Sequence record: MK327937.1
DNA: 64,000 nt
Reading direction: 5' to 3' (one strand)
DNA from: Escherichia phage vB_EcoM_G10400
Shown here one piece after another: positions 15,045-55,723 of the stretch. The notes under the pieces are model-generated. The model did not search any database. It saw nothing but the letters and a program-made list of their open reading frames with translations, and had not been told where the DNA came from. Numbering within the stretch: the stretch's first letter is position 1; every line of letters begins with the position of its first letter. The position numbers were made by a program, and so were the translations under genes.

Positions 15045-15074
15045 ACTATAACACAACACGAGGGACTTGTAAAC
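15045..15074 (-). promoter_or_regulatory. Candidate early promoter (GTTTAC -35, 18-nt spacer, TATAGT -10)
   Basis: Minus-strand GTTTAC at 15069-15074 and TATAGT at 15045-15050; part of a ~50-bp cassette repeated at 30281-30334. Confidence 0.5.
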
Positions 15075-17134: not shown

Positions 17135-19189
17135 TTATCCTTGAACGAACTTGTAAGGCATGTTTGCAATATCTATACAAGACGCAATAATTCCAAGAGA
17201 TGATTCTACTTTCTGTTTAACATTTGATGAAACAAATGATGCAAAGTCAACTCTGTCTTCTACTTCAATATCACCTGTCATTGTAACTACTTCGCCGGTT
17301 TCCATTAGACGGTCACCGTCATAAATTACCGATTCGGTGAGTTCTTCTGTGGTCATAACTTCAGCTTGAATAAGCTTGTTGTTAGTTTTAACTGTTCCAT
17401 CATTGTAAGATGCATCGGTTATTTTATTAACTTTGACCATTAATCCACGTGGCAAAATGACTTCCATTTCATTTGAAGGTGCTAAACTTCCACCTGGTAA
17501 AACAACATTGACTTTATCAGCCCCAGTAATAACCCATCCAATTCCAACTAAATTATCGCTAGAATTTACTAGTCCTTCATCAGTTTTATCAATAGAAACA
17601 CTTAAACGCTTTTCGTCTGGTAAAACACCCACAGATGAATCAGTCATCCAGGTACCAAAAATATTTGGATATAATGATGTTGACACAAAGTTTCTAAAAT
17701 AAAAAACTCGATTTTTTACCATTGCTTCATATATTGAAGGTAACATTCGTTGTGAACGATACAAAGTAATACCTTTTGGTAATCGTTCACCATTTTTAAA
17801 GGCTGAATCTAAATTATCAATAGCTTTTTCTATGTCAGATGCTGTCAAAATACTTGTACGCTCATCTGGATTATATAATCCCAAAAGAGCATTATTTATA
17901 TCTACATATCCTGAACCTACGTATTCACGAATTCCGCGTTTTTGCGCCGGTGTGTATTTAGATGAATCTTTATTTTCGACTATAGGATGTAATGACCATC
18001 CAGCGGTAAGAGCATATCCACGTAATTCTCTTCGAATAATCTTTGTTTTTATTGCATTCCAAGAATTTTGTACTAACTCATTTGCAGCATCTTGGTTTAA
18101 ATGCGAATGTTTGTTAATATTTCTTTCAAACCAAGCACCTTTATATTTTTCTAAGGTATCATCGACGATAGAAGCAATAGTTTCTAAAGTTTTTATTGAA
18201 GTAATAGATTCTTTTTTTAATTTTTCTAAAGCTTTATTTTTTATTTCTGCATTAATAATGGATTCTTTATCTTCAGGAATTATAGAAGCTTCTCTGAATG
18301 CCATCCCAGCTGTAACACTGCTAAGAGCATTCTCTAGTGCAAATCCTGAAGTAGAAATTACCGTTAATTCATTAGAATCAGAAATTAAAGGCGCGTCCGC
18401 TGGTTTATTTAATTCTGCCGCTGAAGCCTCAAATTTTTGAAACATCGGTGTTTCAAATCTAGAAGATTCCAATGACTGACTTTGTGCAATTGCTCTACGG
18501 GAAATTTTAACTTTAACGATTACAGCTTGGTCAGAACGTTTATCATTTTCTTGTGCAATAGATGCTGCAATTGCCTCATTTTTAGTTACTTGAGCTCCAG
18601 TATCTTTATTGATATAAACATCACCGACCTTCGATTCAACTTTAGTAAAGAGCTCGGTACTAATTTCTGGAACTCCTGGAATGTCTTCTAGTGATACATT
18701 TTTGCGATGTATAAGAATATATGCATACTTTTTATCATAATCCCAGAGTTCCTTAAGAAGGACGTATCTGCCACCTGAACGACTACGGATAAGTCTATCA
18801 GCAATAACTTGAATTTGTCGAGCTTGACCAGCGGTTTTAGACTTAAGAATACGAAGCATACAGGCATCAATTTTATACTGACGCATTGTTTGCATCGCAA
18901 CAGTAAAAACTGAATTGATATAATTAATTGGGCTTGGACCAAGACCTTTTAATTTAGCAATTGAACCTTTAGCAGTTAATGTAAAAGGAACAATATGCAT
19001 CATTTTATCGCCCATCTTTAAATCGCGATTAGTATCACCTCCAGATGTATAGGTACATAAACGAAAGCCTGGTTGTTCAATTGCATCATCAACATGAACT
19101 GAAAAAATTTGCGGTATTTTCTTCTTTGGATTTAAGTTTGTAATCGGAAGAGTAGTATCTTCGTCAAATAATTCTGTAATAAGTTCCAT
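17135..19189 (-). CDS. alt: ADP-ribosyltransferase Alt (packaged head protein)
   Basis: About 684 aa from second Met; sequence matches my recall of T4 Alt (MELITELFDEDTTLPITNL...); ART motifs TLYRSQ, FVSTSL, EMEVILPRG. Confidence 0.8.
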   Translation of the reverse strand: MELITELFDEDTTLPITNLNPKKKIPQIFSVHVDDAIEQPGFRLCTYTSGGDTNRDLKMGDKMMHIVPFTLTAKGSIAKLKGLGPSPINYINSVFTVAMQTMRQYKIDACMLRILKSKTAGQARQIQVIADRLIRSRSGGRYVLLKELWDYDKKYAYILIHRKNVSLEDIPGVPEISTELFTKVESKVGDVYINKDTGAQVTKNEAIAASIAQENDKRSDQAVIVKVKISRRAIAQSQSLESSRFETPMFQKFEASAAELNKPADAPLISDSNELTVISTSGFALENALSSVTAGMAFREASIIPEDKESIINAEIKNKALEKLKKESITSIKTLETIASIVDDTLEKYKGAWFERNINKHSHLNQDAANELVQNSWNAIKTKIIRRELRGYALTAGWSLHPIVENKDSSKYTPAQKRGIREYVGSGYVDINNALLGLYNPDERTSILTASDIEKAIDNLDSAFKNGERLPKGITLYRSQRMLPSIYEAMVKNRVFYFRNFVSTSLYPNIFGTWMTDSSVGVLPDEKRLSVSIDKTDEGLVNSSDNLVGIGWVITGADKVNVVLPGGSLAPSNEMEVILPRGLMVKVNKITDASYNDGTVKTNNKLIQAEVMTTEELTESVIYDGDRLMETGEVVTMTGDIEVEDRVDFASFVSSNVKQKVESSLGIIASCIDIANMPYKFVQG

Positions 19190-19241
19190 CATAGCCTCTC
19201 TAGTGTTTATTCTATTTATAAAATTAAAGGCCCGAAGGCCT

Positions 19242-19430
19242 TTAATAATCTAGTGGTAAGAGAGTACGGTATATTTCAAACTTTGGACCTTTTTCATAGG
19301 CATCAAATGTTTCTGTGAATTTATTATAAGCATATGCATCTACAAATTCGAGAATGACTTGTGATACAGAAGTAGAAACATCTCCACCTTCTTTTTGAGC
19401 AATGACAATTGTTTCTAAGTAAGCTTTCAT
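19242..19430 (-). CDS. Hypothetical small protein between ligase and alt
   Basis: 62-aa ORF; overlaps ligase stop. Confidence 0.5.
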   Translation of the reverse strand: MKAYLETIVIAQKEGGDVSTSVSQVILEFVDAYAYNKFTETFDAYEKGPKFEIYRTLLPLDY

Positions 19431-20890
19431 AAACCAGTTACCTCATGAAAATCACCAAATACATCCTCGAATGTATTAGCTTTAGTTTTATCTTCACGCA
19501 AACGAATCGCAATCGGAAGAAATAATTTAACGTAATCAGTGCGGCCATCAGATTTTAACCAACCGTTGCATTCGCACTCTAGAATTTTTCCAATATAATA
19601 ATTTTGGTTTTCCATAATGCGAGTACGGTCAAGTTCATGCGATTTTACACCGGCTTTATCTTTTAAGCCTGAACCAGCATTTACTTTAATTTTTCCACAC
19701 TCTGACTCAAGAATAAATCCACCTGCTTTAGTAGGGTCTTTACGGTGAGGATAAATTCCTACAATTTTTAAATCAACATCAATTACTTCTTTAAATTTAT
19801 AGAGATTTTTTGAACGAGCATTTTCCCATAATCCATCGATATTTTTGAGAATAATACCTTCAAGACCTTGGTCAATATACTTTTTATAAATTATCTTGGC
19901 TTCGTCTAGGTTATTTACTACCTGGTTTTCAATTAAAATTACTTTATCATAGCCTGATGTCATTTGTTCTAGTTTAGAAAAACGTACATCATATTTCAAA
20001 CGAAATGCAGGAAGACCGTATATTTCTACCAACGGTACATAATCCCAGACCTGAAACTTCATGCATTGTGCTTCTTTTTCAGAAATGGTTCCCTTTAAAG
20101 ATTTATTGGCGATGCCATTAGATGCAGTACGTGATTCAGCTACTTCGGCGAATTCTTTAGCTTTACTGTTTTCAGGATAAGCATCAAAAAGAAAATCTAG
20201 GCCTTCTGGCTCCTTTTTAACTTGCTCATGATATACCAATTCGCCATCAATTAACACGCCTTCTGGATGAATCTGGCGGGCTTCAGCGGTCATTTTGATT
20301 AATTCTTCCTTAAGAAGATCTAATCCTAGATATTCATTACCAGCTCGTGATAAAAGACGAACGTCATCTAATTCATCACCTCTGACTTCGGCAAAGCACC
20401 GAGCTCCATCAGCTTTTAACTGGGCAAAGGCTGGAAATTTGATATTCTTATTAATGCCTTTTTCATCATAAGAACTTGCAAGCATTTGAGGTTGTTCAGG
20501 AATTAAACCTGGCCAAACTTTGTTCGCAATAGATACTGAAGCGCCACATTCAAGGTCTCGCATCATCACTCGACGCAAAACTTCAACATCATCTTTTTTA
20601 CCGTCAGTAATATAACCTACTAATTCCTCAATTGCCGCATTTCCGGTCAATTTTCGAGTAGCTAATGTAAATTCAATGAAGTCAAGCATATCAGTAATAG
20701 TCAGCATTCCAAAACTCTGGGTAGCAATACCAGGTTTAGGCCATTTCTTGATATAATACTGTAACCCACGAGAATAAGTCAGACGATATACTCGTTTAAG
20801 CAATTCATTATCTTTATTCTTTTCAAGAATTGCTTGCTTCTGCTTAGTTGAACCAATAGATGCTATTTCGTTCAGAATTTTAAGAATCAT
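19427..20890 (-). CDS. 30: ATP-dependent DNA ligase gp30
   Basis: 487 aa; MILKILNEIASIGSTKQKQAILEKNK and KADGAR adenylation motif as in T4 DNA ligase. Confidence 0.95.
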   Translation of the reverse strand: MILKILNEIASIGSTKQKQAILEKNKDNELLKRVYRLTYSRGLQYYIKKWPKPGIATQSFGMLTITDMLDFIEFTLATRKLTGNAAIEELVGYITDGKKDDVEVLRRVMMRDLECGASVSIANKVWPGLIPEQPQMLASSYDEKGINKNIKFPAFAQLKADGARCFAEVRGDELDDVRLLSRAGNEYLGLDLLKEELIKMTAEARQIHPEGVLIDGELVYHEQVKKEPEGLDFLFDAYPENSKAKEFAEVAESRTASNGIANKSLKGTISEKEAQCMKFQVWDYVPLVEIYGLPAFRLKYDVRFSKLEQMTSGYDKVILIENQVVNNLDEAKIIYKKYIDQGLEGIILKNIDGLWENARSKNLYKFKEVIDVDLKIVGIYPHRKDPTKAGGFILESECGKIKVNAGSGLKDKAGVKSHELDRTRIMENQNYYIGKILECECNGWLKSDGRTDYVKLFLPIAIRLREDKTKANTFEDVFGDFHEVTGL

Positions 20891-32455: not shown

Positions 32456-33545
32456 CGTATGTTCGATTGAGTTCGCTAATTCTCAACCCGTTCTCTTATG
32501 AACTGCTGCATGTTACCATGCAGTCCAGACTATATCACAATCCCGGAGGGATTCTCCCCATTTCGAGTCGCTTGACCCTACGTCCGAAGACTAGTCGTTG
32601 AACCTTGTTTTGCAATTGTCGCCGTGCCATCGTTTATATGTTGATGGTGATAAATCTTTCTTATCACAATATGGACAATTCAATTGAATTCTATTTGGAT
32701 TTAATTTACATCTGTCATTATGTTTTAGATAAAATCCAGGACCTTTACCAATGTGACCACAAAAATCACATGTGATTTCTTTTTGTGCAGGATGGGTCCC
32801 GTTCTTAACCATTTCTAATGTTTTTGCTGATGTTCTTTTCTTATGGTCTTCTGATAAGAAATGATGTGAACCGTCATTTACCCGTTTTGATTGAGTTTCT
32901 GACTGCATTTTACCACCGCAAAATACATGAGTACCTTCTTTTATAGCTGCAATATTGCGTTCTTTAACTTTTGCAATATGCTCAGCTTGTTGAAAATTAT
33001 GTATACCTAATGCAACTCTATTTAAATTAGATTTACGCTGTATTTCACCATCTAAAAGATGAAATGTACCATTTTCTATCTTAGATTTAATAGAGGCAAT
33101 ATTTTTAGCTCGTACTTCAGGGATATTAAAAATCTGGATTTCTCTAGATTTTGCGGCTTTAGAAGCTAATTCAGAAATTTCTTCAGGAGAATATTTCATT
33201 CTAAGCTTTATAGCATGACAAGCCTTGTAATCTTTTTGAGCTAAATGTATATCATAATGTTCCTGTATAGAAAGGCACATCAAATTATCTAAATCATTAT
33301 TTTCACGGTTACCGTCTTTATGATGGATTTCGTATGTTCTTCCATCAGAATCTTTAGGTATAGGTCCGTTAGCATCTATCCAAATTTTTCTATAGTTCAA
33401 TTGTGCATCCTCTTAAAAGTATAATCATATTTATATTATACTAATTAAAGGTGCAAGCAAAACCTTGGCTGCTAGTTTTCCTATAAAGGACTTTCCAGCA
33501 ATTAAAGGAGTTTTCGATAAACGTTACCGTTTAAAGGCGCATTTT
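32456..33545 (-). mobile_element. Group I self-splicing intron in nrdB (1090 nt) carrying I-TevIII
   Basis: Exon 1 ends in U, intron ends in G; 3' region shares conserved core (GAUAUAGUC...GCAUGG...CAUGCAG) with the td intron; splice junction restores NrdB frame. Confidence 0.75.
32591..33400 (-). CDS. HNH homing endonuclease I-TevIII (full length)
   Basis: 269 aa inside nrdB intron; EIHHKDGNRENNDLDNL HNH motif and C-terminal zinc-finger-like Cys pairs. Confidence 0.8.
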   Translation of the reverse strand: MNYRKIWIDANGPIPKDSDGRTYEIHHKDGNRENNDLDNLMCLSIQEHYDIHLAQKDYKACHAIKLRMKYSPEEISELASKAAKSREIQIFNIPEVRAKNIASIKSKIENGTFHLLDGEIQRKSNLNRVALGIHNFQQAEHIAKVKERNIAAIKEGTHVFCGGKMQSETQSKRVNDGSHHFLSEDHKKRTSAKTLEMVKNGTHPAQKEITCDFCGHIGKGPGFYLKHNDRCKLNPNRIQLNCPYCDKKDLSPSTYKRWHGDNCKTRFND

Positions 33546-34221
33546 ACGCAAAAGATACATAAAAACGAATAGCTTCTAAGGCATTAATAACGTGCAAACA
33601 GAGGTAAAGAGATTTCATTAAAGCACGTTTAGCTTCGGCTTCTTGTTTAATAGCTCGGTTTAAACGAAAGACGGCATCAGGAGATTCTTTAGCTAGTTCT
33701 ACAAATTCTTTAGCATTTTCCCATTCACGAGTTTTAATCAGAACATCATCATAATAACGTCCAATGGATTCAGCACGTTTCATAATAGCTTCATCTAATA
33801 CAATCTCATCAAATACCTTTGACGGATCAGTATAAAGATTTCGCATGATATGAGTATATGAACGACTATGAATAGTTTCACTAAAAGTCCATGTAGCAAC
33901 CCATGTATCAAGGCTTGGGTCTGAAATTAATGACATAAGTACAGCAGATGGCGCACGACCCTGAATGCTATCCAAAAGTGATTGATACTTCAGGTTATTA
34001 GTAAAAATATCTTGCTGATATTGAGGAAGCTTGTTAAATTGTGCAGCATCCATCATCAAGTTTACTTCTTCAGGACGCCAGAAAAATGACAATTGCTTTT
34101 CGGTTAAATCTTCAAAAACTTTATGGCGTTGAATATCATAACGCGCAATACCAAGACCTGAACCAAAAAACATAGGTTCTTTTAAAACATCAACTGGATT
34201 TGTATTAAAAACTGTGCTCAT
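33546..34221 (-). CDS. nrdB: Ribonucleotide reductase small subunit NrdB, exon 1
   Basis: MSTVFNTNPVDVL... through ...EAIRFYVSFA; class I R2 ferritin-like fold residues. Confidence 0.8.
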
Positions 34222-37406: not shown

Positions 37407-38422
37407 CATTATGTTCAGATAAGGTCGTTAATCTTACCCCGGAATTATATCCAGCTGCATGTCACCATGCAGATCAGACTATATCTCCAACTTGTTAAAG
37501 CAAGTTGTCTATCGTTTCGAGTCACTTGACCCTACTCCCCAAAGGGATAGTCGTTAGGCATTTATGTAGAACCAATTCCATTTATCAGATTTTACACGAT
37601 AAGTAACTAATCCAGACGAAATTTTAAAATGTCTAGTTGCATCTGCTGCACAATCAAAAATAACCCCATCACATGAAATCTTTTTAATATTACTAGGCTT
37701 TTTACCTTTCATCTTTTCTGATATTTTAGATTTAGTTATGTCTGAATGCTTATGATTAAAGAATGAATTATTTTCACCTGAACGATTTCTGCATTTACTA
37801 CAAGTATAAGCAGAAGTTTGTATGCGAACACCGCACTTACAAAACTTATGGGTTTCTGGATTCCAACGCCCGTTTTTACTTCCGGGTTTACTGTAAAGAG
37901 CTTTCCGACCATCAGGTCCAAGTTTAAGCATCTTAGCTTTAACAGTTTCAGAACGTTTCTTAATAATTTCTTCTTTTAATGGATGCGTAGAACATGTATC
38001 ACCAAACGTTGCATCAGCAATATTGTATCCATTAATTTTAGAATTAAGCTCTTTAATCCAAAAATTTTCTCGTTCAATAATCAAATCTTTCTCATATGGA
38101 ATTTCTTCCAAAATAGAACATTCAAACACATTACCATGTTTGTTAAAAGACCTCTGAAGCTTTATAGAAGAATGGCATCCTTTTTCTAAATCTTTAAAAT
38201 GCCTCTTCCATCTCTTTTCAAAATCTTTAGCACTTCCTACATATACTTTATTGTTTAAAGTATTTTTAATCTGATAAATTCCGCTTTTCATAAATACCTC
38301 TTTAAATATAGAAGTATTTATTAAAGGGCAGTCCTACAATTTAGCACGGGATTGTCTACTAGAGAGGTTCCCCGTTTAGATAGATTACAAGTATAAGTCA
38401 CCTTATACTCAGGCCTCAATTA
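37407..38422 (-). mobile_element. td group I intron (1016 nt) carrying I-TevI
   Basis: 5' end UAAUUGAGGCCUGAGUAUAAGGUGACUUAUAC... and 3' end ...GAACAUAAUG match the T4 td intron as I recall; exon 1 ends GGU. Confidence 0.9.
37554..38291 (-). CDS. GIY-YIG homing endonuclease I-TevI
   Basis: 245 aa; MKSGIYQIKNTLNNKVYVGSAKDFEKRWKRH GIY-YIG domain; C-terminal DNA-binding region with zinc finger. Confidence 0.9.
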   Translation of the reverse strand: MKSGIYQIKNTLNNKVYVGSAKDFEKRWKRHFKDLEKGCHSSIKLQRSFNKHGNVFECSILEEIPYEKDLIIERENFWIKELNSKINGYNIADATFGDTCSTHPLKEEIIKKRSETVKAKMLKLGPDGRKALYSKPGSKNGRWNPETHKFCKCGVRIQTSAYTCSKCRNRSGENNSFFNHKHSDITKSKISEKMKGKKPSNIKKISCDGVIFDCAADATRHFKISSGLVTYRVKSDKWNWFYINA

Positions 38423-38971
38423 ACCCAAGAAAACATCTACTGATCGTTGATACCACTGCAAATCCAAATAGCCATTACGCACATTAAACTGATAGAACAT
38501 ATGACAAGGCGGTAATGCCATTTGCTTAAGTTCTGCCGGATTCCATGCTGAAACAATTTGACGCCTATCATTTGGCAGTTTTTTAATACGATCAATAACT
38601 TCTATAATTTGGTCTACACCGCCAAAATCACGCCATTGTTTTCCATAAATTGGACCAAGTTCACCGCTATGGTATCCTAAATCTTTTGCTTGATTTTCGT
38701 AATTTTCATCCCAGACTGTTTTGCCTTGAATTAATGAATTATGTTGAATTAATCGCAAATCATTTACGTTAGTACTTCCTGATAAGAACCACAATAACTC
38801 AGAAATACATGCATTCCAGGCGAGCTTCTTAGTTGTTACTGCAGGAAAACCTTTAGTTAAATCCCAGCGTAATTTAGTACCGAACAAAGCAATTGTTCCT
38901 GTGCCCGTTCGGTCATCAGTTTCATAACCATTTTCAAAAATGTCTTTAATTAAATCTTGGTATTGTTTCAT
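38423..38971 (-). CDS. td: Thymidylate synthase, exon 1
   Basis: MKQYQDLIKDIFENGYETDDRTGTGT... through ...DVFLG; catalytic PPCH motif present. Confidence 0.9.
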
Positions 38972-45143: not shown

Positions 45144-45151
45144 TATAAATA
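45144..45151 (+). promoter_or_regulatory. Late promoter core TATAAATA for gene 34
   Basis: TATAAATA about 35 nt upstream of gene 34 ATG (45186), SD TAGGAG. Confidence 0.6.
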
Positions 45152-45185: not shown

Positions 45186-48100
45186 ATGGCCGAGATTAAA
45201 AGAAAGTTCAGAGCAGAAGATGGTCTGGACGCAGGTGGTGATAAAATAATCAACGTAGCTTTAGCTGATCGTGCCGTAGGAACTGACGGCGTTAACGTTG
45301 ATTACTTAATTCAAGAAAACACAGTTCAACAATATGATCCAACTCGTGGATATTTAAAAGATTTTGTAATCATTTATGATAACCGCTTTTGGGCTGCTAT
45401 AAATGATATTCCAAAACCAGCAGGAGCTTTTAATAGCGTACGATGGAGAGCGTTACGTACTGATGCAAACTGGACAACTGTTTCATCAGGACCTTATCAA
45501 TTAAAATCGGGCGAATCAATTTCAGTTGATACTGCAGCTGGTAATGACATTACATTTACTTTACCATCTTCTCCAATTGATGGTGATACCATCGTTCTCC
45601 AAGATATTGGAGGAAAACCTGGAGTTAATCAAGTTTTAATTACAGCTCCGGTACAAAGCATTGTAAATTTTAGAGGTCAGCAAGTACGTTCAGTACTAAT
45701 GACTCATCCAAAATCACAGATAGTTTTAATTTTTAGTAATCGTCTGTGGCAAATGTATGTTGCTGATTATAGTAGAGAAGCTGTAGTTGTAACTCCTGCG
45801 AGTCTCTATCAGGCACAATCAAACGATTTTATCGTACGTAGATTTACTTCTGCTTCAGCAATTAATATTAAACTTCCAAGATTTGCCAATCATGGCGATA
45901 TTATTAATTTCGTTGATTTGGATAAATTAAATCCTCTTTATCACACAATTGTTACTACATATGATGAAACAACTTCAGTACAAGAAGTTGGAACTCATTC
46001 CATTGAAGGTCGTACATCGATTGACGGTTTCTTGATGTTTGATGATAATGAGAAATTGTGGAGATTGTTTGACGGGGATAGTAAAGCACGTTTACGCATT
46101 ATAACAACTAATTCTAATATTCGTCCAAACGAAGAAGTCATGGTATTTGGCGCGAATAATGGAACAACCCAAACAATTGAACTTCAGCTTCCGACTGATA
46201 TTTCTGTTGGTGATACTGTCAAAATTTCCATGAATTACATGAGAAAAGGACAAACGGTTAAAATCAAAGCTGCAGGTGAAGATAAAATTGCTTCTTCAGT
46301 TCAATTGCTGCAATTCCCAAAACGCTCAGAATATCCACCTGAAGCTGAATGGGTAACAGTTCAAGAATTAGTTTTTAATGGTGAAACTAATTATGTACCA
46401 GTTTTGCAACTTGCTTATATTGAAGATTCTGATGGAAAATACTGGGTTGTACAGCAAAATGTTCCAACCGTAGAAAGAGTAGATTCTTTAAATGATTCTA
46501 CTAGAGCAAGATTAGGCGTAATTGCTTTAGCTACACAAGCTCAAGCTAATGTCGATTTAGAAAATTCTCCTCAAAAAGAATTAGCAATTACTCCAGAAAC
46601 GTTAGCTAATCGTACTGCTACAGAAACTCGCAGAGGTATTGCAAGAATAGCAACTACTGCTCAAGTGAATCAGAACACCACATTCTCTTTTGCAGATGAC
46701 CTTATCATTACTCCTAAAAAGCTGAATGAAAGAACTGCTACAGAAACTCGTAGAGGTGTCGCAGAAATTGCTACGCAGCAAGAAACTAATACAGGTACTG
46801 ATGATACTACAATCATTACTCCTAAAAAGCTTCAAGCTCGTCAAGGTTCTGAATCATTATCTGGTATTGTAACCTTTGTATCTACTGCAGGAGCTACTCC
46901 AGCTTCTAGCCGTGAATTAAATGGTACGAATGTTTATAATAAAAACACTAATAATTTAGTTGTTTCGCCTAAAGCTCTGGATCAGTATAAAGCTACTCCA
47001 ACGCAACAAGGTGCAGTAATTTTAGCAGTTGAAAGTGAAGTAATTGCTGGACAAAGTCAGGAAGGATGGGCAAATGCGGTTGTAACGCCAGAAACGTTAC
47101 ATAAAAAGACATCAACTGATGGAAGAATTGGTTTAATTGAAATTGCTACGCAAAGTGAAGTTAATACAGGAACTGATTATACACGTGCAGTCACTCCTAA
47201 AACTTTAAATGACCGTAGAGCAACTGAAAGTTTAAGTGGTATAGCTGAAATTGCTACACAAGTTGAATTCGACGCGGGCGTCGACGATACTCGTATCTCT
47301 ACACCATTAAAAATTAAAACCAGATTTAATAGTACTGATCGTACTTCTGTTGTTGCTCTATCTGGATTAGTTGAATCAGGAACTCTCTGGGACCATTATA
47401 CCCTTAATATTCTTGAAGCAAATGAGACACAACGTGGTACACTTCGTGTGGCTACACAAGTAGAAGCTGCTGCTGGAAAATTAGATAATGTTTTAATAAC
47501 TCCTAAAAAGCTTTTAGGTACTAAATCTACTGAAGCACAAGAAGGTGTTATTAAAGTTGCAACTCAGTCTGAAACTGTGACTGGAACGTCAGCAAATACT
47601 GCTGTATCTCCAAAAAATTTAAAATGGATTGTGCAGAGTGAACCTACCTGGGCAGCTACTACTGCAGTAAGAGGCTTTGTTAAAACTTCATCTGGTTCAA
47701 TTACATTTGTCGGTAATGATACAGTCGGTTCTACCCAAGATTTAGAACTGTATGAGAAAAATAGTTATGCAGTATCACCATATGAATTAAACCGTGTATT
47801 AGCAAATTATTTGCCATTAAAAGCAAAAGCTGCGGATAGTAATTTATTGGATGGTCTAGATTCATCTCAGTTCATTCGTAGGGATATTGCGCAGACGGTT
47901 AATGGTTCACTAACCTTAACTCAACAAACGAATCTGAGTGCCCCTCTTGTATCATCTAGTACTGCTACGTTTGGTGGATCAGTTTCGGCAAATAGTACAC
48001 TAACTATTTCTAATACTGATAGAACAGCAACTCGTCTGATTTTTGAGAAAGGATCTCAAACTGGAACGAACCCGGCTCAAACGATGACAGTCAGCGTGTG

Positions 48101-49058
48101 GGGGAATCAATTTAGTGGGGAATCAAACACAACACGTTCTACCGTATTTGAAGTTAGTGATGAAACATCTTATCACTTTTATTCTCAACGCGATAAAGAT
48201 GGTAATATAGCATTTAGCATTAATGGTACTGTAATGCCAATAAATGTGAATGCTTTAGGAACATTGAATGCAAATGGTGTAGCAACATTTGGTAATTCAG
48301 TCACTGCAAGTGGTGAAATTATTTCTCGAAGCGCAAATGCTTTCCGTGCTATTAACGGAAATTATGGTTTTATTGTTCGCAATGACGGGTCAGTAACGAA
48401 TTTTATGCTTACTGCATCGGGCGATCAGACTGGTGGATTTAATGGATTACGTCCATTAACTATTAATAATGCATCTGGTCAAGTAACGATTGGTGAAAGC
48501 TTAATCATTGCCAAAGGTGCTACTATAAATTCAGGCGGTTTAACTGTTAACTCGAGAATTCGTTCTCAGGGCACTAAAACATCTGACTTATATACCCGTG
48601 TGCCGACATCTGATACTGTAGGATTCTGGTCAATTGACATTAATGATTCAGCTACTTATAACCAATTCCCGGGTTATTTTGAAATGGTTGAAAAAACTAA
48701 TGAAGTGACTGGACTTCCATACTTAGAACGTGGCGAAGAGGTTAAATCTCCTGGTACATTGACTCAGTTTGGTAACACACTTGATTCGCTTTACCAAGAT
48801 TGGATTACTTATCCAACTACCCCAGAAGCTCGCACCACTCGCTGGACACGCACATGGCAGAAAACAAAAAACTCTTGGTCGAGTTTTGTTCAGGTATTTG
48901 ATGGAGGTAACCCTCCTCAGCCATCTGATATTGGTGCTTTACCATCTGATAATGCTATAATGGGGAATCTTACTATTCGTGATTTCTTACGAATTGGTAA
49001 TGTTCGCATTATTCCTGACCCAGTGAATAAAACGGTTAAATTTGAATGGGTTGAATAA
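45186..49058 (+). CDS. 34: Long tail fibre proximal subunit gp34
   Basis: 1290 aa; synteny and size. Confidence 0.9.
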   Translation: MAEIKRKFRAEDGLDAGGDKIINVALADRAVGTDGVNVDYLIQENTVQQYDPTRGYLKDFVIIYDNRFWAAINDIPKPAGAFNSVRWRALRTDANWTTVSSGPYQLKSGESISVDTAAGNDITFTLPSSPIDGDTIVLQDIGGKPGVNQVLITAPVQSIVNFRGQQVRSVLMTHPKSQIVLIFSNRLWQMYVADYSREAVVVTPASLYQAQSNDFIVRRFTSASAINIKLPRFANHGDIINFVDLDKLNPLYHTIVTTYDETTSVQEVGTHSIEGRTSIDGFLMFDDNEKLWRLFDGDSKARLRIITTNSNIRPNEEVMVFGANNGTTQTIELQLPTDISVGDTVKISMNYMRKGQTVKIKAAGEDKIASSVQLLQFPKRSEYPPEAEWVTVQELVFNGETNYVPVLQLAYIEDSDGKYWVVQQNVPTVERVDSLNDSTRARLGVIALATQAQANVDLENSPQKELAITPETLANRTATETRRGIARIATTAQVNQNTTFSFADDLIITPKKLNERTATETRRGVAEIATQQETNTGTDDTTIITPKKLQARQGSESLSGIVTFVSTAGATPASSRELNGTNVYNKNTNNLVVSPKALDQYKATPTQQGAVILAVESEVIAGQSQEGWANAVVTPETLHKKTSTDGRIGLIEIATQSEVNTGTDYTRAVTPKTLNDRRATESLSGIAEIATQVEFDAGVDDTRISTPLKIKTRFNSTDRTSVVALSGLVESGTLWDHYTLNILEANETQRGTLRVATQVEAAAGKLDNVLITPKKLLGTKSTEAQEGVIKVATQSETVTGTSANTAVSPKNLKWIVQSEPTWAATTAVRGFVKTSSGSITFVGNDTVGSTQDLELYEKNSYAVSPYELNRVLANYLPLKAKAADSNLLDGLDSSQFIRRDIAQTVNGSLTLTQQTNLSAPLVSSSTATFGGSVSANSTLTISNTDRTATRLIFEKGSQTGTNPAQTMTVSVWGNQFSGESNTTRSTVFEVSDETSYHFYSQRDKDGNIAFSINGTVMPINVNALGTLNANGVATFGNSVTASGEIISRSANAFRAINGNYGFIVRNDGSVTNFMLTASGDQTGGFNGLRPLTINNASGQVTIGESLIIAKGATINSGGLTVNSRIRSQGTKTSDLYTRVPTSDTVGFWSIDINDSATYNQFPGYFEMVEKTNEVTGLPYLERGEEVKSPGTLTQFGNTLDSLYQDWITYPTTPEARTTRWTRTWQKTKNSWSSFVQVFDGGNPPQPSDIGALPSDNAIMGNLTIRDFLRIGNVRIIPDPVNKTVKFEWVE

Positions 49059-49066: not shown

Positions 49067-50182
49067 ATGGAAAAATTTATGGCAGAGTTTGGACAAGGAT
49101 ATGTCCAAACGCCATTTTTATCGGAAAGTAATTCAGTAAGATATAAAATAAGTATAGCGGGTTCTTGCCCGCTTTCTACTGCAGGACCATACGTCAAATT
49201 TCAGGATAATCTTGTTGGAAGCCAAACATTTAGCGCAGGTCTTCATTTAAGAGTTTTTGACCCTTCTACAGGAGCATTAGTTGATAGTAAGTCATATGCT
49301 TTTTCAACTTCAAATGATACTACATCAGCTGCTTTTGTTAGTTTCATGAATTCTTTGGCGAATAACAGACTTGTTGCTATATTAACTAGCGGAAAGGTTA
49401 ATTTTCCTCCTGAAGTAGTATCTTGGTTAAGAGCAGCAGGAACGTCTGCTTTTCCATCTGATTCTTTATTGTCAAGATTTGACGTATCATATGCTGCCTT
49501 TTATACTTCTTCCAAAGGAGCTATTGCATTAGAACATGTTAAACTAAGTAATAGAAAAAGCACAGATGACTATCAAACTATTTTAGATGTTGTATTTGAC
49601 AGTTTAGAAGACGTTGGAGCTACGGGATTTCCTAAAAGAACATATGAAAGCGTGGAGCAATTTATGTCAGCAGTCGGTGGAACTAATAACGAAATTGCAC
49701 GTTTACCAACTTCATCCGCAATAAGTAAACTCTCTGATTATAATTTAATTCCTGGCGATGTTCTTTATCTTAAAGCGCAGTTATATGCTGATGCAGATTT
49801 ACTTGCGCTTGGAACTACAAATATATCTATCCGTTTTTATGATGAATCGAATGGATATATTTCTTCAACACATGCCGAGTTTACTGGACAAGCTGGGTCA
49901 TGGGAATTAAAGGAAGATTATGTAGTTATTCCAGAAAATGCAGTAGGATTTACGATATATGCACAAAGAACTGCGCAAGCAGGTCAAGGTGGCATGAGAA
50001 ATTTAAGCTTTTCTGAAGTATCAAGAAATGGAGGAATTTCAAAACCTGCTGAATTTGGCGTCAATGGTATTCGAGTTAATTATGTCTGTGAATCTGCTTC
50101 ACCTCCGGATATAATGGTACTTCCTACACAAGCATCGTCTAAAACTGGTAAAGTGTTTGGACAAGAATTTAGAGAAGTTTAA
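49067..50182 (+). CDS. 35: Long tail fibre hinge protein gp35
   Basis: 371 aa; synteny and size. Confidence 0.85.
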   Translation: MEKFMAEFGQGYVQTPFLSESNSVRYKISIAGSCPLSTAGPYVKFQDNLVGSQTFSAGLHLRVFDPSTGALVDSKSYAFSTSNDTTSAAFVSFMNSLANNRLVAILTSGKVNFPPEVVSWLRAAGTSAFPSDSLLSRFDVSYAAFYTSSKGAIALEHVKLSNRKSTDDYQTILDVVFDSLEDVGATGFPKRTYESVEQFMSAVGGTNNEIARLPTSSAISKLSDYNLIPGDVLYLKAQLYADADLLALGTTNISIRFYDESNGYISSTHAEFTGQAGSWELKEDYVVIPENAVGFTIYAQRTAQAGQGGMRNLSFSEVSRNGGISKPAEFGVNGIRVNYVCESASPPDIMVLPTQASSKTGKVFGQEFREV

Positions 50183-50187
50183 ATTGA

Positions 50188-50210
50188 GGGAGCCTTCGGG
50201 TTCCCTTTTT
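50188..50210 (+). terminator. Intrinsic terminator after gene 35
   Basis: GGGAGCC-TTCG-GGTTCCC hairpin followed by TTTTT. Confidence 0.6.
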
Positions 50211-50213: not shown

Positions 50214-50221
50214 TATAAATA
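50214..50221 (+). promoter_or_regulatory. Late promoter core TATAAATA for gene 36
   Basis: TATAAATA 24 nt upstream of gene 36 ATG. Confidence 0.6.
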
Positions 50222-50244: not shown

Positions 50245-50901
50245 ATGGCTGATTTAAAAGTAGGTTCAACAACTGGAGGCTCTGTCATTTGGCATCAAGG
50301 AAATTTTCCATTGAATCCAGCCGGTGACGATGTACTCTATAAATCATTTAAAATATATTCAGAATATAATAAGCCACAAGCTGCCGATAACGATTTCGTT
50401 TCTAAAGCTAATGGCGGTACGTATTTAAATAAAGTAATTTTTAATAAAGGAATGACTGTTCCTGGCGCAGGGTCAGGTGATAATGGTATTTTTGCTGGTC
50501 CTGGTGATAGTGCCACGTATGATACTACAAATATGGATATTGTTTCGTGGTATGGTATTGGTTTTAAATCATCACAAGGAACAGCAGGTAGAACTGTAGT
50601 AATTAACACGCGAAATGGAGATATTAGCTCAAAGGGTGTAATTGAAGCATCACAAATCCGTGTAACTTCGTTATCACCAGTAAATAATTATGACCTTACG
50701 CGGAAAGATTATGTTGATGGAGCAATAAATATTGTTACAGCAAACGCAAACTCTAGGGTATTACGCTCTGGAGACACTATGACAGGAAATTTAACTGCGC
50801 CAAACCTTTTTTCACAGAATCCTGCATCTCAACCCTCGCATGTTCCACGATTTGACCAAATTGTTATTAAGGATTCTGTTCAAGATTTCGGCTATTATTA
50901 A
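50245..50901 (+). CDS. 36: Long tail fibre distal connector gp36
   Basis: 218 aa; synteny. Confidence 0.85.
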   Translation: MADLKVGSTTGGSVIWHQGNFPLNPAGDDVLYKSFKIYSEYNKPQAADNDFVSKANGGTYLNKVIFNKGMTVPGAGSGDNGIFAGPGDSATYDTTNMDIVSWYGIGFKSSQGTAGRTVVINTRNGDISSKGVIEASQIRVTSLSPVNNYDLTRKDYVDGAINIVTANANSRVLRSGDTMTGNLTAPNLFSQNPASQPSHVPRFDQIVIKDSVQDFGYY

Positions 50902-50909: not shown

Positions 50910-53900
50910 ATGGCTACTTTAAAACAAATACAATTTAAAAGAAGCAAAACTGCAGGAGCACGTCCTGCCGCTTCAGTATTAGCCGAAGGTGAATTGGCTA
51001 TAAACTTAAAAGACCGTGTACTTTTTACTAAAGATGACCAAGGAAATATTATTGATCTGGGTTTTGCTAAAGGCGGTAGTATTGACGGGAATGTTATTCA
51101 TACAGGCAATTATAACCAAACTGGCGATTATACTTTAAATGGTGTCTTCACTCAGACTGGTAATTTTAATTTAACTGGTATTGCTCGAGTAACTCGCGAT
51201 ATTATTGCCGCTGGGCAGATTATGACTGAAGGCGGAGAACTTATTACAAAAAGTTCAGGTACAGCGCATGTTCGTTTTTTCGATAACAATAGTCGCGAAC
51301 GCGGAATCATTTATGCCCCGGCTAATGATGGTTTAACTACACAAGTACTTAATATCAGGGTTCAAGACTACGCCGCTGGTAGCGAAAGCACTTATGCATT
51401 TTCAGGCAGTGGACTATTTACTTCACCTGAAGTATCAGCATGGAAATCTATTTCGTCTCCACAAATTCTAACCAACAAAGTCATTACTAATAATAAATCT
51501 ACGGGTGATTATGACATCTATTCGATGGCAGACAATGTTCCATTGTCTGAAAGCACTACTGCTATTAATCATCTTCGTGTCATGCGTAATGCCGTTGGTT
51601 CTGGTATTTTCCATGAAGTTAAAGATAATGATGGAATAACTTGGTATGCAGGTGATGGACTTGACACCTATCTTTGGTCATTTACTTGGAGCGGCGGAAT
51701 TAAATCGAGTCACTCAATTTCTATTGGTTTAACACCTGGTAATAAAGATTATTCAATATTAGGACCATCTAGTATTGCTTTAGGAGATAATGATACTGGA
51801 TTTAAATGGCATCAAGATGGATATTATTTTAGCGTTAATAATGGAACAAAAACGTTTTTATTTAGTCCTAGCGAAACAACTAGCCTAAGAAAATTTGTAG
51901 CTGGATATTCTACTAACGGAACCGATTTAACTACTCCTCCAACTGAAAACTATGCATTAGCCACTGTTGTTACTTACCATGATAATAACGCATACGGCGA
52001 CGGTCAAACTCTTTTAGGATATTATCAAGGCGGTAACTATCATCATTATTTCCGCGGTAAAGGTACTACAAACATTAATACTCACGGCGGTTTGTTAGTT
52101 ACTCCTGGTAATATTGACGTTATTGGTGGTTCTGTTAATATCGATGGTAGAAATAATAATTCAACTTTAATGTTTAAAGGCTATACCATGGGTCAAAGCT
52201 CCGTTGATAACATGTATATAGCTGTTTGGGGAAATACTTTTACTAATCCAAGTGAAGGCACCCGTAAAAATGTCATGGAAATTTCTGATGATATTGGATG
52301 GATGCATTATATTCAACGAACAACTGCAGGTAAAGTCGAATCGGTTCTAAACGGCACCCAGATTGTTAATGAAAACTTGACCGTAGTAAAAAATGCTACA
52401 TTTGATGGTACAATCAGCGCAGCAGGTGAAATTTCATCTGGGGCTGTGAATGCGCTTCGTATTTGGAACGCAGATTATGGAGCTATTTTTAGACGTTCAG
52501 AAGGCAGTCTTCATATTATTCCAACTGCTTACGGTGAAGGTAAATATGGCGATATCGGTCCACTTCGCCCGTTTAGTATGGCTTTAGATACCGGTAAAGT
52601 TACTATTCCAGATTTACAATCAAGTTACAATACGTTTGCTGCTAACGGTTATATTAAATTTGTTGGTCATGGAGCGGGTGCCGGCGGTTATGACATTCAA
52701 TATGCTCAAGCGGCTCCTATTTTCCAGGAAATTGATGATGATGCTGTAAGCAAATATTATCCTATTGTTAAACAGAAGTTTTTAAATGGTAAAGCTGTTT
52801 GGTCTTTAGGTACTGAAATTAGTTCAGGTACATTCGTTATTCATCATCTGAAAGAAGATGGTTCACAAGGCCATACGTCTCGTTTTAATCAAGACGGTAC
52901 TGTTAACTTCCCAGATAACGTTTCTGTCGGCGGCGGTGAAGCTACTATTGCTCGCAATGGTAATATCTGGTCTGATATCTGGAAAACGTTTACTTCAGCA
53001 GGCGACGTAACTAATATTCGCGATGCAATAGCTACTCGTGTTGCTAAAGAAGGTGATACGATGACCGGTAGGTTGACTTTATCTGCTGGAAATGATGCCC
53101 TTGTTTTAACTGCAGGCACGGGCGCTTCATCGCACATCCGTAGTGATGTAGGTGGTACAAATAATTGGTTTATAGGCAAAGGCGGCGGCGACAATGGTCT
53201 AAGTTTTTACAGTTACATTACACAAGGCGGTGTGAACATAACAAATAACGGCGAAATAGCGCTTTCTCCTCAAGGACAAGGAGCGTTTAATTTTAATAGA
53301 GACCGCCTTCATATAAACGGTACACAATGGACCGCACACCAGGCTGGCGATTGGGGAAATCAATGGCGCCAGGAAGCTCCTGTATTTGTGGATTTTGGTA
53401 ATGTCGGTAATGATAGTTATTATCCTATTATTAAAGGAAAATCTGGTATTACTAATGAAGGGTATATATCTGGTGTAGATTTTGGTATGCGACGCATTCC
53501 TAATAACTGGGCACAAGGTATTATTCGTGTAGGTAATCAGGAAAACGGTTCCGACCCACAAGCTGTCTTCGAATTCCACCATAATGGAAACATGTACGTT
53601 CCTGACATGGTTAAAGCTGGAGTAAGAATATCAGCTGGTGGAGGTGACCCTGCATGGACAGACGCATGTGTTGTTATTGGTGATAATGACACCGGATTAG
53701 TTCATGGTGGTGACGGCCGAATCAATATGGTTGCCAATGGTATACATATTGCAAACTGGGGAGCAGGCTATCAATCTCATCCTGGGCTTTGGGATTCAAC
53801 CGGTGCTTTTTGGACAGAAGTTGGAAGAGCTATCGTTTCTCATGGGCATCTCGTTCAGGCAAATGATAGTTATTCAACGTTTGTCCGTGATGTTTATGTC

Positions 53901-54239
53901 CGTTCTGATATTCGTGTTAAAAAAGACCTTGTTAAATTTGAAAATGCTTCTGAGAAGCTTTCAAAAATTAATGGTTACACTTATATGCAGAAGCGAGGCC
54001 TAGATGAAGAAGGTAATCAAAAATGGGAACCTAATGCCGGTTTAATTGCCCAAGAAGTTCAAGCTATTTTACCTGAATTAGTTGAAGGCGATCAGGATAG
54101 TGAAGCTTTACTTCGTTTGAACTATAACGGTGTAATTGGTTTAAATACAGCTGCAATCAATGAGCATACTGCAGAAATTGCAGAACTTAAATCAGAAATT
54201 GAAGAACTTAAAGCATTAGTTAAATCATTGTTAAAATAA
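50910..54239 (+). CDS. 37: Long tail fibre distal subunit gp37 (T2-type, with C-terminal coiled-coil chaperone-like extension)
   Basis: 1109 aa, longer than the 1026-aa T4 gp37 I recall; C-terminus ...[26 protein letters not shown]. Confidence 0.85.
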
Positions 54240-54244
54240 TAAGA

Positions 54245-54258
54245 GGGGCTTCGGCCCC
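54245..54258 (+). other. GC stem-loop with UUCG tetraloop in the 37-38 intergenic region
   Basis: GGGGC-TTCG-GCCCC immediately before the gp38 SD GGAGG; only a short T-run, so attenuator or RNA stability element rather than strong terminator. Confidence 0.45.
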
Positions 54259-54270
54259 TTGGAGGTTTAT

Positions 54271-55047
54271 ATGGCAGTAACAGGACCGTGGGTAGGATCG
54301 TCTGCAGTAGTTAATACAGGACAAAATTGGATGGGTGGTGCCGCGCAGAGATTGAGAATGGGAATTCCGTTTTGGATGAGTAATATGATAGGTAGATCTG
54401 TTGAAATAATTCACACGCTTGGAGCAGACCATAACTTCAATGGTCAATGGTTCCGAGATAGATGTTTTGAGGCAGGTAGTGCACCTATAGTGTTTAATAT
54501 CACTGGAGATTTAGTATCATATTCTAAAGATGTTCCTTTATTCTTCATGTATGGAGATACACCGAATGAATATGTTCAGTTGAATATACACGGCGTAACG
54601 ATGTATGGACGTGGCGGTAATGGCGGTAGCAATAGTCCTGGTTCAGCTGGAGGTCATTGTATTCAAAACGATATTGGTGGGAGACTAAGAATTAATAATG
54701 GCGGAGCTATTGCTGGAGGTGGCGGCGGTGGCGGTGGCGGATATTATTCTCCTTTTTCACAAATGAGATTGACTTTTGGAGGTGGCGGCGGGCGTCCGTT
54801 TGGCGCACCGGGCGGATCTATTGATATGCAATCAGGAGCAACTGCTGGTACTATTTCTGCGCCTGGCGCAGGGTCTGTGAACGGTATCTATAGCGGCGGT
54901 GGCGGTGGCGAAGTTGGCTCCGCAGGAGGTAGATGTAATATTCGTGGTCAAGGATATGAATACGATGGCGGAGCTGCTGGTTATGCCGTCATAGGGTCTA
55001 CACCGACATGGCAAAACGTTGGAGCAATATATGGTCCAAGAGTATAA
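54271..55047 (+). CDS. 38: T2-type receptor-recognising adhesin gp38 with glycine-rich motifs
   Basis: 258 aa from ATG 54271 (ORF track starts at a TTG); multiple poly-Gly stretches ([28 protein letters not shown]) separated by variable segments. Confidence 0.8.
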
Positions 55048-55066: not shown

Positions 55067-55723
55067 ATGGCAGCACCTAGAATATCATTTTCGCCCTCTG
55101 ATATTCTGTTGGGTGTTCTAGATCGCTTGTTCAAAGATAACGCTACCGGGAAAGTTCTTGCTTCCCGGGTAGCTGTCGTAATTCTTTTATTTATGATGGC
55201 GATTGTTTGGTATAGGGGAGATAGTTTCTTTGAGTACTATAAGCAATCAAAGTATGAAACATACAGTGAAATTATTGAAAAGGAAAGAAATGCACGCTTT
55301 GAATCTGTCGCCCTGGAACAACTCCAGATAGTTCATATATCATCTGAGGCAGACTTTAGTGCGGTGTATTCTTTCCGCCCTAAAAACTTAAACTATTTTG
55401 TTGATATTATAGCATACGAAGGAAAATTACCTTCAACAATAAGTGAAAAATCACTTGGAGGATATCCTGTTGATAAAACTATGGATGAATATACAGTTCA
55501 TTTAAATGGACGTCATTATTATTCCAATTCAAAATTTGCTTTTTTACCAACTAAAAAGCCTACTCCCGAAATAAACTACATGTACAGTTGTCCATATTTC
55601 AATTTGGATAATATCTATGCTGGAACAATAACCATGTACTGGTATAGAAATGATCATATAAGTAATGACCGCCTTGAATCAATATGTGCTCAGGCGGCCA
55701 GAATATTAGGAAGGGCTAAATAA
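55067..55723 (+). CDS. t: Holin T
   Basis: 218 aa from MAAPRISFSPSDIL with AAAGGAGGG SD; single TM segment then periplasmic domain; matches T4 holin. Confidence 0.9.
   Translation: MAAPRISFSPSDILLGVLDRLFKDNATGKVLASRVAVVILLFMMAIVWYRGDSFFEYYKQSKYETYSEIIEKERNARFESVALEQLQIVHISSEADFSAVYSFRPKNLNYFVDIIAYEGKLPSTISEKSLGGYPVDKTMDEYTVHLNGRHYYSNSKFAFLPTKKPTPEINYMYSCPYFNLDNIYAGTITMYWYRNDHISNDRLESICAQAARILGRAK

Follow-up and report, generated by a model that had tools for sequence, protein, structure and literature searches.

Organization of the long tail fibre locus

The window analysed here is a stretch of 64,000 nucleotides from Escherichia phage vB_EcoM_G10400 (MK327937.1), in which the genes 34-35-36-37-38-t follow one another in the T-even order. 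On the + strand, gene 36 (50245..50901, 218 aa) encodes the distal hinge connector of the long tail fibre (Pfam Phage_T4_gp36, 1.5e-28), gene 37 (50910..54239, 1109 aa) the distal half-fibre subunit, gene 38 (54271..55047, 258 aa) a receptor-recognising adhesin, and gene t (55067..55723, 218 aa) the holin (Pfam Phage_holin_T, 2.6e-117) that forms the downstream boundary of the cassette. The 1109-aa gene 37 frame at 50910-54239, already called in a first-pass annotation made from the sequence alone, was confirmed on the + strand, and phrog_1699 ('long tail fiber protein distal subunit') covers residues 1-1108 of its product end to end. Since gp37 and gp38 both have full-length homologues (phrog_1699 and Pfam GP38) and the DNA is matched by 647 phage records, 122 of which cover at least 80% of its length, the two genes are not chance open reading frames.

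The closest record is that of Escherichia phage 4E10 (99.2% nucleotide identity). The two phages have 100% identical gp38 proteins, and gp37 shares 98.9% identity with its 4E10 counterpart and about 86% with the gp37 proteins of RB27 and FL23. The same layout, with the gp38 gene between a chaperone-ended gene 37 and t, is found in T2, T6, RB27, FL23 and 4E10. The source phage is very probably a Tequatrovirus with a fibre tip of the adhesin-carrying design of T2, T6 and S16, not of the T4 design.

An exact match to the T4-type late promoter box TATAAATA, which on the basis of the T4 late-promoter consensus we take to act as a late promoter, is located upstream of gene 36 (50214..50221, + strand), and a second copy is present at 45144, ahead of gene 34. 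An exact-match search found no further TATAAATA between the 50214 box and gene 38, and no exact late-promoter box stands directly before gene 38; a late transcript of genes 36-37-38 likely starts at the 50214..50221 box. A sigma-70 promoter scan remained at background (25 found versus 21.8 expected), and no RNA genes were revealed when the whole window was scanned for tRNAs and Rfam families.

A G+C-rich hairpin with a UUCG tetraloop (AGGGGC UUCG GCCCCU; 54244..54259, + strand; fold -15.1 kcal/mol) lies between the stop codon of gene 37 and the ribosome-binding site of gene 38. It has no downstream T-run on the + strand and appears in the terminator listing as terminator-like on the - strand only. 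Gene 38 is listed as an open reading frame of 262 aa starting from a TTG at 54259. However, we place its start at the ATG at 54271, which gives the 258-aa gp38 of the first-pass annotation, because a Shine-Dalgarno sequence GGAGG (54261..54265, + strand) lies 5 nt before this codon and the Gp38_N alignment begins at residue 1 of its product. Local G+C content reaches 0.49 in the glycine-rich part of gene 38, compared with a background of about 0.37, because of the glycine content of the protein.

Sequence and predicted fold of the gp38 adhesin

gp38 belongs to the polyglycine adhesins, as had been proposed from its glycine-rich motifs. Pfam GP38 (PF05268) matches residues 45-258 over the complete profile (1-218 of 218, 1.2e-70) and Gp38_N (PF21721) matches residues 1-40 (1.5e-21); besides these adhesin families, no Pfam family was matched. 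Sequence comparison with PDB retrieved the gp38 proteins of PP01 (9v85, 1e-81) and S16 (6f45_D, 1e-51), and the same two entries were the only PDB fold matches of the AF2 model (pLDDT 88.9). The best structural match was the PP01 receptor-binding domain (TM-score 0.88 on target, rmsd 2.3 Å, 68% identity), with a nearly identical β-helix portion, whereas the hypervariable loops diverge from those of PP01, which binds OmpC of E. coli O157 (PMC12892980). Identity to S16 gp38 is 46% over the structural alignment to 6f45_D, and the loops are unlike those of S16, whose receptor is Salmonella OmpC.

Residues 1-40 (54271..54390, + strand) form the gp37-attachment domain (Gp38_N) and contain W7, W20 and W35. 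All three tryptophans are invariant in an alignment of six phages including T2, T6, RB27, FL23 and 4E10, and among 74 gp38 homologues W7 never varies and W20 hardly does. In S16, gp38 is a monomer that consists of an attachment domain docking via three tryptophans, a β-helix and a polyglycine sandwich (PMC6851490), and by analogy gp38 of G10400 is expected to be monomeric as well. The specificity domain (residues 113-258; 54607..55044, + strand) is built of glycine-rich motifs alternating with hypervariable segments, and the share of glycine amounts to 38% in residues 113-237. The C-terminal motif of the family (…P.W.NVG.IYG.RV) is present, with W247, G251, I253, Y254 and G255 as well as position 245 invariant or nearly so.

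Specificity subtype and predicted receptor

The specificity domain of gp38 is most similar to those of RB27 (145/146 residues, 99.3%), FL23 (94.5%) and T6 (93%, 9-10 residues differing), followed by M1, FL18 and Ac3 (70-77%), FL08 and AV119 (55%) and T2 (51%). With Gly-Gly columns excluded, the identities are 99% for RB27, 92% for FL23, 90% for T6 and 32% for T2. The domain shares the T6 set of hypervariable segments and does not carry T2-like ones, and a T2 subtype was rejected on the basis of 51% identity to T2 in this domain versus 93% to T6. The label 'T2-type' given earlier to the tip thus holds in the generic sense of a fibre with an adhesin, but the specificity domain is of T6 type (93-99% identity to T6, FL23 and RB27). 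T2 shares this generic design; its gp38 is 49% identical overall, and its receptors are FadL and OmpF.

Over its full length gp38 is 98% identical to RB27 gp38, and it has the Gly9 tract length, hypervariable segments and C-terminal motif of the RB27, 4E10 and T6 adhesins. In contrast to the specificity domain, residues 1-112 with the attachment domain are of the RB27/FL08 subtype and only 76% identical to T6. The sole specificity-domain difference from RB27 is S229Y, which lies in a variable segment, is common to 4E10 and also distinguishes gp38 from the T6 and FL23 proteins.

Tsx is reportedly required for infection by RB27 and T6 (PMC3157838) as well as by FL23 and FL44 (PMC12032242), and on E. 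coli every T6-like adhesin tested in the former study used this receptor (PMC3157838). Because the gp38 loops are nearly identical to those of RB27, FL23 and T6, the outer-membrane nucleoside channel Tsx is most probably the receptor of this phage. The earlier proposal that the variable loops set host range agrees with published work on homologues (PMC3157838, PMC12032242). The receptor panel suggested along with it comprised OmpA, OmpC, OmpF and FadL, and Tsx was missing from it.

Identity of about 93-99% does not guarantee receptor use, because in the T6-like adhesin of phage PST three substitutions relative to T6 are reported to add recognition of OmpA and of Yersinia (PMC3157838). The same architecture might serve a receptor other than Tsx or one in addition to it (OmpA, for example, or OmpA or LPS alongside Tsx), as a consequence of S229Y or of other substitutions relative to T6. 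The position of S229Y in a variable segment and the placement of 'type 2' OmpA adhesins near the Tsx adhesins (PMC12032242) point in this direction. However, the OmpA-type adhesins that we compared are much less similar to gp38 (FL18 73%, M1 70%, FL08 and AV119 55%), and the uniform use of Tsx by the T6-like adhesins tested on E. coli also speaks against this explanation, which we regard as unlikely. Recognition of Tsx by the gp38 loops is the reading that we retain.

Conservation of the Gly9 tract

The longest glycine-rich motif of gp38 is a run of nine glycines (G149-G157; 54715..54741, + strand), essentially where a stretch of GGN repeats had been placed before (about 54715-54745). Its aligned counterpart in S16 gp38 is the long poly-Gly run 151-GGGGGGGG-158, helix 3 of the polyglycine sandwich (PMC6851490), with eight glycines compared with nine here. 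The first-pass annotation had suggested that this stretch could undergo slippage, and we considered whether it might be a contingency locus at which slippage varies the length or phase of the adhesin and thereby diversifies host range. Short GGCGGT repeats are indeed present at 54724-54740 and 54895-54910, an 18-nt exact direct repeat occurs at 54722 and 54893, and three of the 120 homologue clusters (P0008, P0014 and P0029) show in-frame deletions of 20-22 aa from the tract to the next glycine motif, with junctions inside GGY repeats in both DNAs that were read (P0008 and P0014).

The tract itself, however, is encoded by mixed codons (GGA GGT GGC GGC GGT GGC GGT GGC GGA) with a longest perfect unit of only 2.8 copies of GGCGGT. 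Nine glycines are kept in 27 of the 30 closest homologue cluster representatives, and the tracts of 4E10, RB27, FL23 and T6 differ by synonymous changes at constant length. A survey of 120 homologue clusters and of DNA from five relatives revealed no polymorphism of tract length among intact close relatives, and the glycines have a structural role in the polyglycine-II lattice (PMC6851490). The P0008 and P0014 variants were traced to contigs of single short-read (Logan) assemblies, and the P0008 contig also encodes a gp37 that a collapse between two GDNDTG motifs has reduced to 477 aa; the three deletion variants may be defective genomes or assembly artefacts and are not reliable evidence. Slippage as a regular process was rejected as lacking comparative support, and a contingency locus at this tract appears very improbable. 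Two more speculative ideas, to which we give a low probability, are that S229Y, which among the compared sequences is shared with 4E10-like phages only, might shift or widen receptor use beyond simple dependence on Tsx and, separately, that loops might in fact be deleted in frame at the GGY tracts with high frequency, giving rise to natural adhesin variants, if the three variants are genuine.

Shaft, tip and C-terminal chaperone of gp37

With 1109 aa, gp37 is unremarkable in length compared with the T6 (994 aa), T4 (1026 aa) and T2 (1341 aa) proteins, and its earlier description as 'elongated' was dropped after this comparison. Residues 450-556 (52257..52577, + strand) resemble the C-terminal trimerisation domain of gp34 (Pfam Gp34_trimer, 6.9e-08, 33.4 bits with a cut-off of 27), and residues 418-567 match the T4 gp34 structures 5nxf and 4uxe (about 5e-16). 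T6 gp37 can be aligned only at residues 1-67, 706-898 and the chaperone, with 35-73% identity, so that by sequence the shaft and tip of gp37 are not T6-like and may provide additional, shaft-mediated binding. The distal tip (residues 917-998; 53658..53903, + strand) can be aligned with the tip fragment of S16 gp37 (PDB 6f45_A), and the alignment with the S16 tip and chaperone extends over residues 917-1109 (E 1e-44). By analogy with the S16 structure (PMC6851490), residues 917-998 are expected to be the gp38 docking surface once gp37 is cleaved.

The last 111 residues of gp37 (999-1109; 53904..54236, + strand) constitute a Peptidase_S74 intramolecular chaperone domain, in agreement with the first-pass annotation of the C-terminus. 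Pfam PF13884 matches residues 999-1058 over profile positions 1-57 of 58 (1.1e-12, 48.4 bits with a cut-off of 22), and the S16 chaperone alignment runs to the last residue and spans the cleavage motif, which reads DVYVR^SDIRVKK here and DLNVS^SDRRIKK in S16. The SDxxxK motif has both its Ser and its Lys, with S999-D-I-R-V-K1004 aligned to S-D-R-R-I-K of S16, and R998^S999 is the predicted site of autocleavage. We presume from endosialidase work that S999 and K1004 act as a Ser/Lys dyad; this assignment in endosialidases was reportedly made by Schwarzer et al. in 2007 and Schulz et al. in 2010 (cited in PMC7289586). With the S74 chaperones of endosialidases, T5 pb1 and MYRF, the domain has in common the full-length Pfam match, the SDxxxK motif at the domain start and a C-terminal helix with heptads, but only the S16 chaperone is close to it by sequence. 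When the last 130 residues of gp37 were compared with PDB as a single sequence, they matched S16 and, weakly and marginally, the MYRF S74-like domain (7dc3, E 0.02), but no endosialidase or T5 chain at E ≤ 1.

The terminal helix (residues 1088-1109; 54171..54236, + strand) aligns with EINELKKQLKELKDIVKFLTK of S16, and its heptad hydrophobics (I1090, L1093, I1097, L1100, V1104 and L1107) show a clean 3-4 spacing. Part of this helix is encoded by a 21-nt tandem repeat (54172-54212, 2.0 copies, 95% matches). The heptads noted in the earlier annotation are therefore real, but they belong to the C-terminal helix of the S74 domain and do not form a separate coiled-coil extension. That the clean heptads mark a structural coiled-coil extension, with all 111 residues kept uncleaved in the virion, is highly unlikely in view of the complete Peptidase_S74 match with its Ser and Lys in place. 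Moreover, S16 gp37 loses its last 113 residues by autocleavage at DLNVS^SDRRIKK, a step required for the docking surface of gp38 to become accessible (PMC7917993), and T2 gp37 is also processed at its C-terminus according to Drexler et al. 1986 as cited in PMC3157838. Autocleavage of gp37 as in S16 is the reading that we adopt.

The idea that gp38 is only an assembly chaperone as in T4, with gp37 itself binding the receptor, draws on nothing more than a common gene name and position between genes 37 and t, and it is already refuted at the sequence level, with next to no probability left: T4 gp38, which is not in the virion, is not related to gp38 of G10400 (BLASTP, E = 1.9, 12 residues), the latter lies fully in the adhesin family by sequence and fold, as the first-pass annotation had proposed, and gp37, which aligns with T4 gp37 at residues 1-646 only, does not have the C-terminal receptor-binding needle of T4 type.

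Proposed model and implications

In the model that we propose, gp37 would trimerise from its C-terminus, templated by its own Peptidase_S74 chaperone (residues 999-1109), of which the last 22 residues are the heptad helix. After folding, the S999/K1004 dyad would cut the R998/S999 bond, releasing the 111-residue chaperone and exposing the tip (residues ~917-998). A single gp38 monomer would then cap the trimeric gp37 tip through its N-terminal three-helix domain with W7, W20 and W35. The β-helix of gp38 would bear a polyglycine-II sandwich, in which the glycine-rich motifs serve as the scaffold, and the receptor, most probably Tsx, would be contacted by the hypervariable loops that lie between these motifs. 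Nothing in the sequence contradicts this mechanism.

The locus encodes a long-tail-fibre tip of the ordinary kind that is already known and well described for T-even coliphages. No new biology comes with it, since GenBank already contains the same gp38 and a gp37 of 98.9% identity (phage 4E10), and the tip architecture has been known from genetic work since the 1980s and from structures since 2018. The value of the finding lies in annotation and host-range prediction only. gp38 can be annotated as a receptor-recognising adhesin of T6 type that is expected to bind Tsx, and the last 111 residues of gp37 as a self-cleaving intramolecular chaperone, which gives guidance on the receptor mutants to choose and on the module to swap in host-range engineering.

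Locus, gene order and expression signals

The window is part of a T4-like (Tequatrovirus) genome and carries on its plus strand gene 34 (45186-49058, 1290 aa), gene 35 (49067-50182), gene 36 (50245-50901), gene 37 (50910-54239, 1109 aa), gene 38 (54271-55047, 258 aa), and the holin gene t (55067-55723). The two ORFs of the tip were re-read, and the coordinates, lengths and gp37 C-terminal peptide reported by the first-pass annotation were all found to be right. The start of gene 38 was assigned to ATG 54271 and not to the TTG 54259 chosen by the ORF finder, because GGAGG lies 5 nt upstream and the Pfam N-terminal profile begins at residue 1 of the 258-aa protein. At the DNA level, the 4.1-kb region of genes 37-38 matches 647 phage records, of which the nearest are Escherichia phage 4E10 (99.2% nucleotide identity) and phage 121/2022-2B (98.9%).

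Exact matches to the T4 late-promoter box TATAAATA are present at 45144 before gene 34 and at 50214 before gene 36. No exact box was found directly ahead of gene 38, suggesting that genes 36-37-38 may be co-transcribed. A G+C-rich hairpin with a UUCG tetraloop (54244-54259, plus strand, -15 kcal/mol) separates the stop codon of gene 37 from the ribosome-binding site of gene 38, with no T-run after it on the plus strand. A second G+C-rich, UUCG-capped hairpin occupies the intercistronic region after gene 35 (50186-50207, plus strand) and leads into a T-run, beyond which lies the late-promoter box at 50214.

gp38 belongs to the family of receptor-binding adhesins

The gp38 protein matches the full Pfam profile GP38 (1.2e-70) and Gp38_N (1.5e-21), as well as two solved adhesins, the receptor-binding domain of PP01 gp38 (9v85, 1e-81) and gp38 of the Salmonella phage S16 (6f45_D, 1e-51). 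An AlphaFold2 model built with 74 homologues as input (mean pLDDT 88.9) retrieved these same two entries, and only these, from the PDB, and superimposed on 9v85 with a TM-score on target of 0.88 and an rmsd of 2.3 Å. S16 gp38 plugs into gp37 through three tryptophans (PMC6851490), which correspond to W7, W20 and W35 of the window gp38 and are invariant in T2, T6, RB27, FL23 and 4E10. The alternative that gp38 is an assembly chaperone of the T4 type finds no support in the alignment of the two proteins (BLASTP E = 1.9), and the earlier assignment of gp38 as an adhesin holds. One database homologue of gp38 (P0073, 303 aa) has a Peptidase_S74 match fused ahead of the GP38 domains, and this fusion is probably due to a gene call that spans the end of gene 37 and enters gene 38.

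Adhesin subtype and expected receptor

Specificity domains were compared over gp38 residues 113-258, which begin at the first GRGG motif and extend to the C-terminus, with the window as reference. The highest identities were obtained with RB27 (145/146, 99.3%), FL23 (94.5%) and T6 (93%), all with Tsx as the reported receptor. Lower values were found for Ac3 (77%), for FL18 (73%), M1 (70%), and FL08 and AV119 (55%), the last four with OmpA reported, and for T2 (51%; FadL/OmpF reported). The tip had been described as T2-type, which stands as regards an adhesin-bearing fibre but not as regards the subtype, which is that of T6 and Tsx (93% identity to T6 versus 51% to T2). Trojet et al. placed RB27 among phages with T6-like adhesins, all said to recognize Tsx on E. 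coli (PMC3157838), and the Tsx dependence of FL23 and FL44 has been shown by experiment (PMC12032242). Given this similarity to the RB27, FL23 and T6 adhesins and their reported use of Tsx, the expected receptor of the window adhesin is Tsx, a prediction from sequence that we consider quite likely to be correct. Tsx was missing from the panel proposed initially for adsorption assays (OmpA, OmpC, OmpF and FadL). Two points call for caution over this assignment. The sole difference from RB27 in the specificity domain, S229Y, is common to 4E10, and in phage PST, which has a T6-like adhesin, three substitutions can add recognition of OmpA and Yersinia (PMC3157838).

gp37 and its C-terminal chaperone

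The gp37 protein matches phrog_1699 ('long tail fiber protein distal subunit') from end to end. Pfam identified two domains in total, a gp34-like trimerisation domain (residues 450-556) and Peptidase_S74 ('chaperone of endosialidase', residues 999-1058; 48.4 bits against a cut-off of 22). The crystallised fragment of S16 gp37 (6f45_A) aligns with residues 917-1109, up to the final residue (E 1e-44). In S16, the intramolecular chaperone comprises the last 113 residues (PMC7917993), and the counterpart of its autocleavage site DLNVS^SDRRIKK in this alignment is DVYVR^SDIRVKK, whose SDxxxK motif contains S999 and K1004. Cleavage at this site is thus predicted to yield a mature gp37 (residues 1-998) and to release the last 111 residues as the chaperone (999-1109, nt 53904-54236). 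Drexler et al. reported C-terminal processing of T2 gp37 in 1986, as cited in PMC3157838.

The heptad pattern of the segment 1088-1109 is formed by the hydrophobic residues I1090, L1093, I1097, L1100, V1104 and L1107. The segment aligns with S16 EINELKKQLKELKDIVKFLTK and includes two heptads encoded by a 21-nt tandem repeat. It had been interpreted as a coiled-coil extension with the character of an intramolecular chaperone. The heptads and the chaperone character are borne out, but the segment is the terminal helix of the Peptidase_S74 chaperone domain and not a separate extension. Nor is gp37 elongated, since 1109 aa is an ordinary length for this protein (T6 994, T4 1026 and T2 1341 aa).

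Glycine tract and candidate deletion variants

The GGN repeats of gene 38 had been proposed to undergo slippage. The Gly9 tract (54715-54741) has mixed codons, and the only repeat found there by Tandem Repeats Finder is GGCGGT x 2.8. Among 120 listed representatives of 90%-identity gp38 homologue clusters, exactly nine glycines are present in 27 of the 30 closest, and 8, 7 or 6 in more distant groups. The tracts of 4E10, RB27, FL23 and T6 differ from that of the window by synonymous GGT/GGC changes with length unchanged. The counterpart run in S16 forms a polyglycine-II helix within a saturated hydrogen-bond lattice (PMC6851490), and tract length is therefore under structural constraint. Slippage is unsupported, and nothing indicates a variation system driven by it.

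Repeat-mediated deletion in gene 38 is possible. In-frame deletions of 20-22 aa, from the Gly9 tract to the next glycine motif, occur in three clusters (P0008, P0014 and P0029), and in the two whose DNA was read, P0008 and P0014, each represented by a single short-read contig, the junctions lie within GGY repeats. Among contigs of related phages, Logan contig L007 (SRR30543803, 33-2217) lacks 20 aa of gp38 between two glycine tracts and has gp37 shortened in-frame to 477 aa through the fusion of two GDNDTG motifs (residues ~300 and ~920 of the window gp37), the collapse seen in the P0008 contig. In Logan contig L008 (ERR14716713, 1501-2151), gp38 is 22 aa short at the same place. These deletions may be real mutants or assembly artefacts. 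Two of the glycine-rich motifs encoded by gene 38 share an exact 18-nt direct repeat, GCGGCGGTGGCGGTGGCG (54722-54739 and 54893-54910, plus strand; 171 nt apart, in frame), whose copies could serve as a substrate for the deletion or exchange of loops.

Other features of the window

Two tandem 685-aa ORFs on the minus strand (15074-17131 and 17135-19192; 41% mutual identity), each with an ADP-ribosyltransferase exoenzyme domain (Alt-like), look like a duplicated alt gene and adjoin a DNA ligase (19427-20890). Also on the minus strand, a thymidylate synthase reading frame ends after 183 aa (38420-38971) and is followed by a complete homing endonuclease of the GIY-YIG, I-TevI type (245 aa, 37554-38291), which is how the td group I intron of T4 is laid out. 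At gathering thresholds, Rfam returned no group I intron for any part of the window. On the same strand, an ORF for part of the ribonucleotide reductase small subunit (225 aa, 33544-34221) precedes an HNH_3 endonuclease ORF (269 aa, 32591-33400), an arrangement similar to that of an nrdB intron whose I-TevIII-like gene is full-length. A SegE-like GIY-YIG endonuclease ORF (205 aa, 4040-4657, plus strand) lies directly upstream of a 502-aa ORF (4660-6168). A 472-aa ORF (1705-3123, minus strand) with several weak Ig/PKD-type domain matches may encode a Hoc-like decoration protein, as gene order suggests; T4 Hoc is shorter (about 376 aa).

Modularity and standing of the tail-fibre tip

The flanking sequence (genes 34-36, t, asiA and further on) shares mostly 85-100% nucleotide identity with T2, T4 and T6, apart from a few short stretches of lower identity. 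Gene 37 is largely unalignable with these phages at the nucleotide level over ~51000-54250, and forms a patchwork of 63-99% nucleotide identity with RB27 and FL23. The N-terminal part of gp38 belongs to the RB27/FL08 subtype, sharing 94-96% identity with RB27 and FL23 and 76% with T6. FL08 combines such an N-terminal part with an OmpA-type specificity domain. A modular design, in which an attachment domain paired with the gp37 tip subtype is joined to an exchangeable specificity domain, has already been described (PMC3157838), and the layout read from the window is that known design.

The tail-fibre tip observation is confirmed, and its main interpretation is supported. All findings on this gp37-gp38 tip are already known. 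Sequences deposited for 4E10 include the identical gp38 and a gp37 of 98.9% identity, and genetic and structural work on T2, T6, S16 and PP01 has established the mechanism of such tips.
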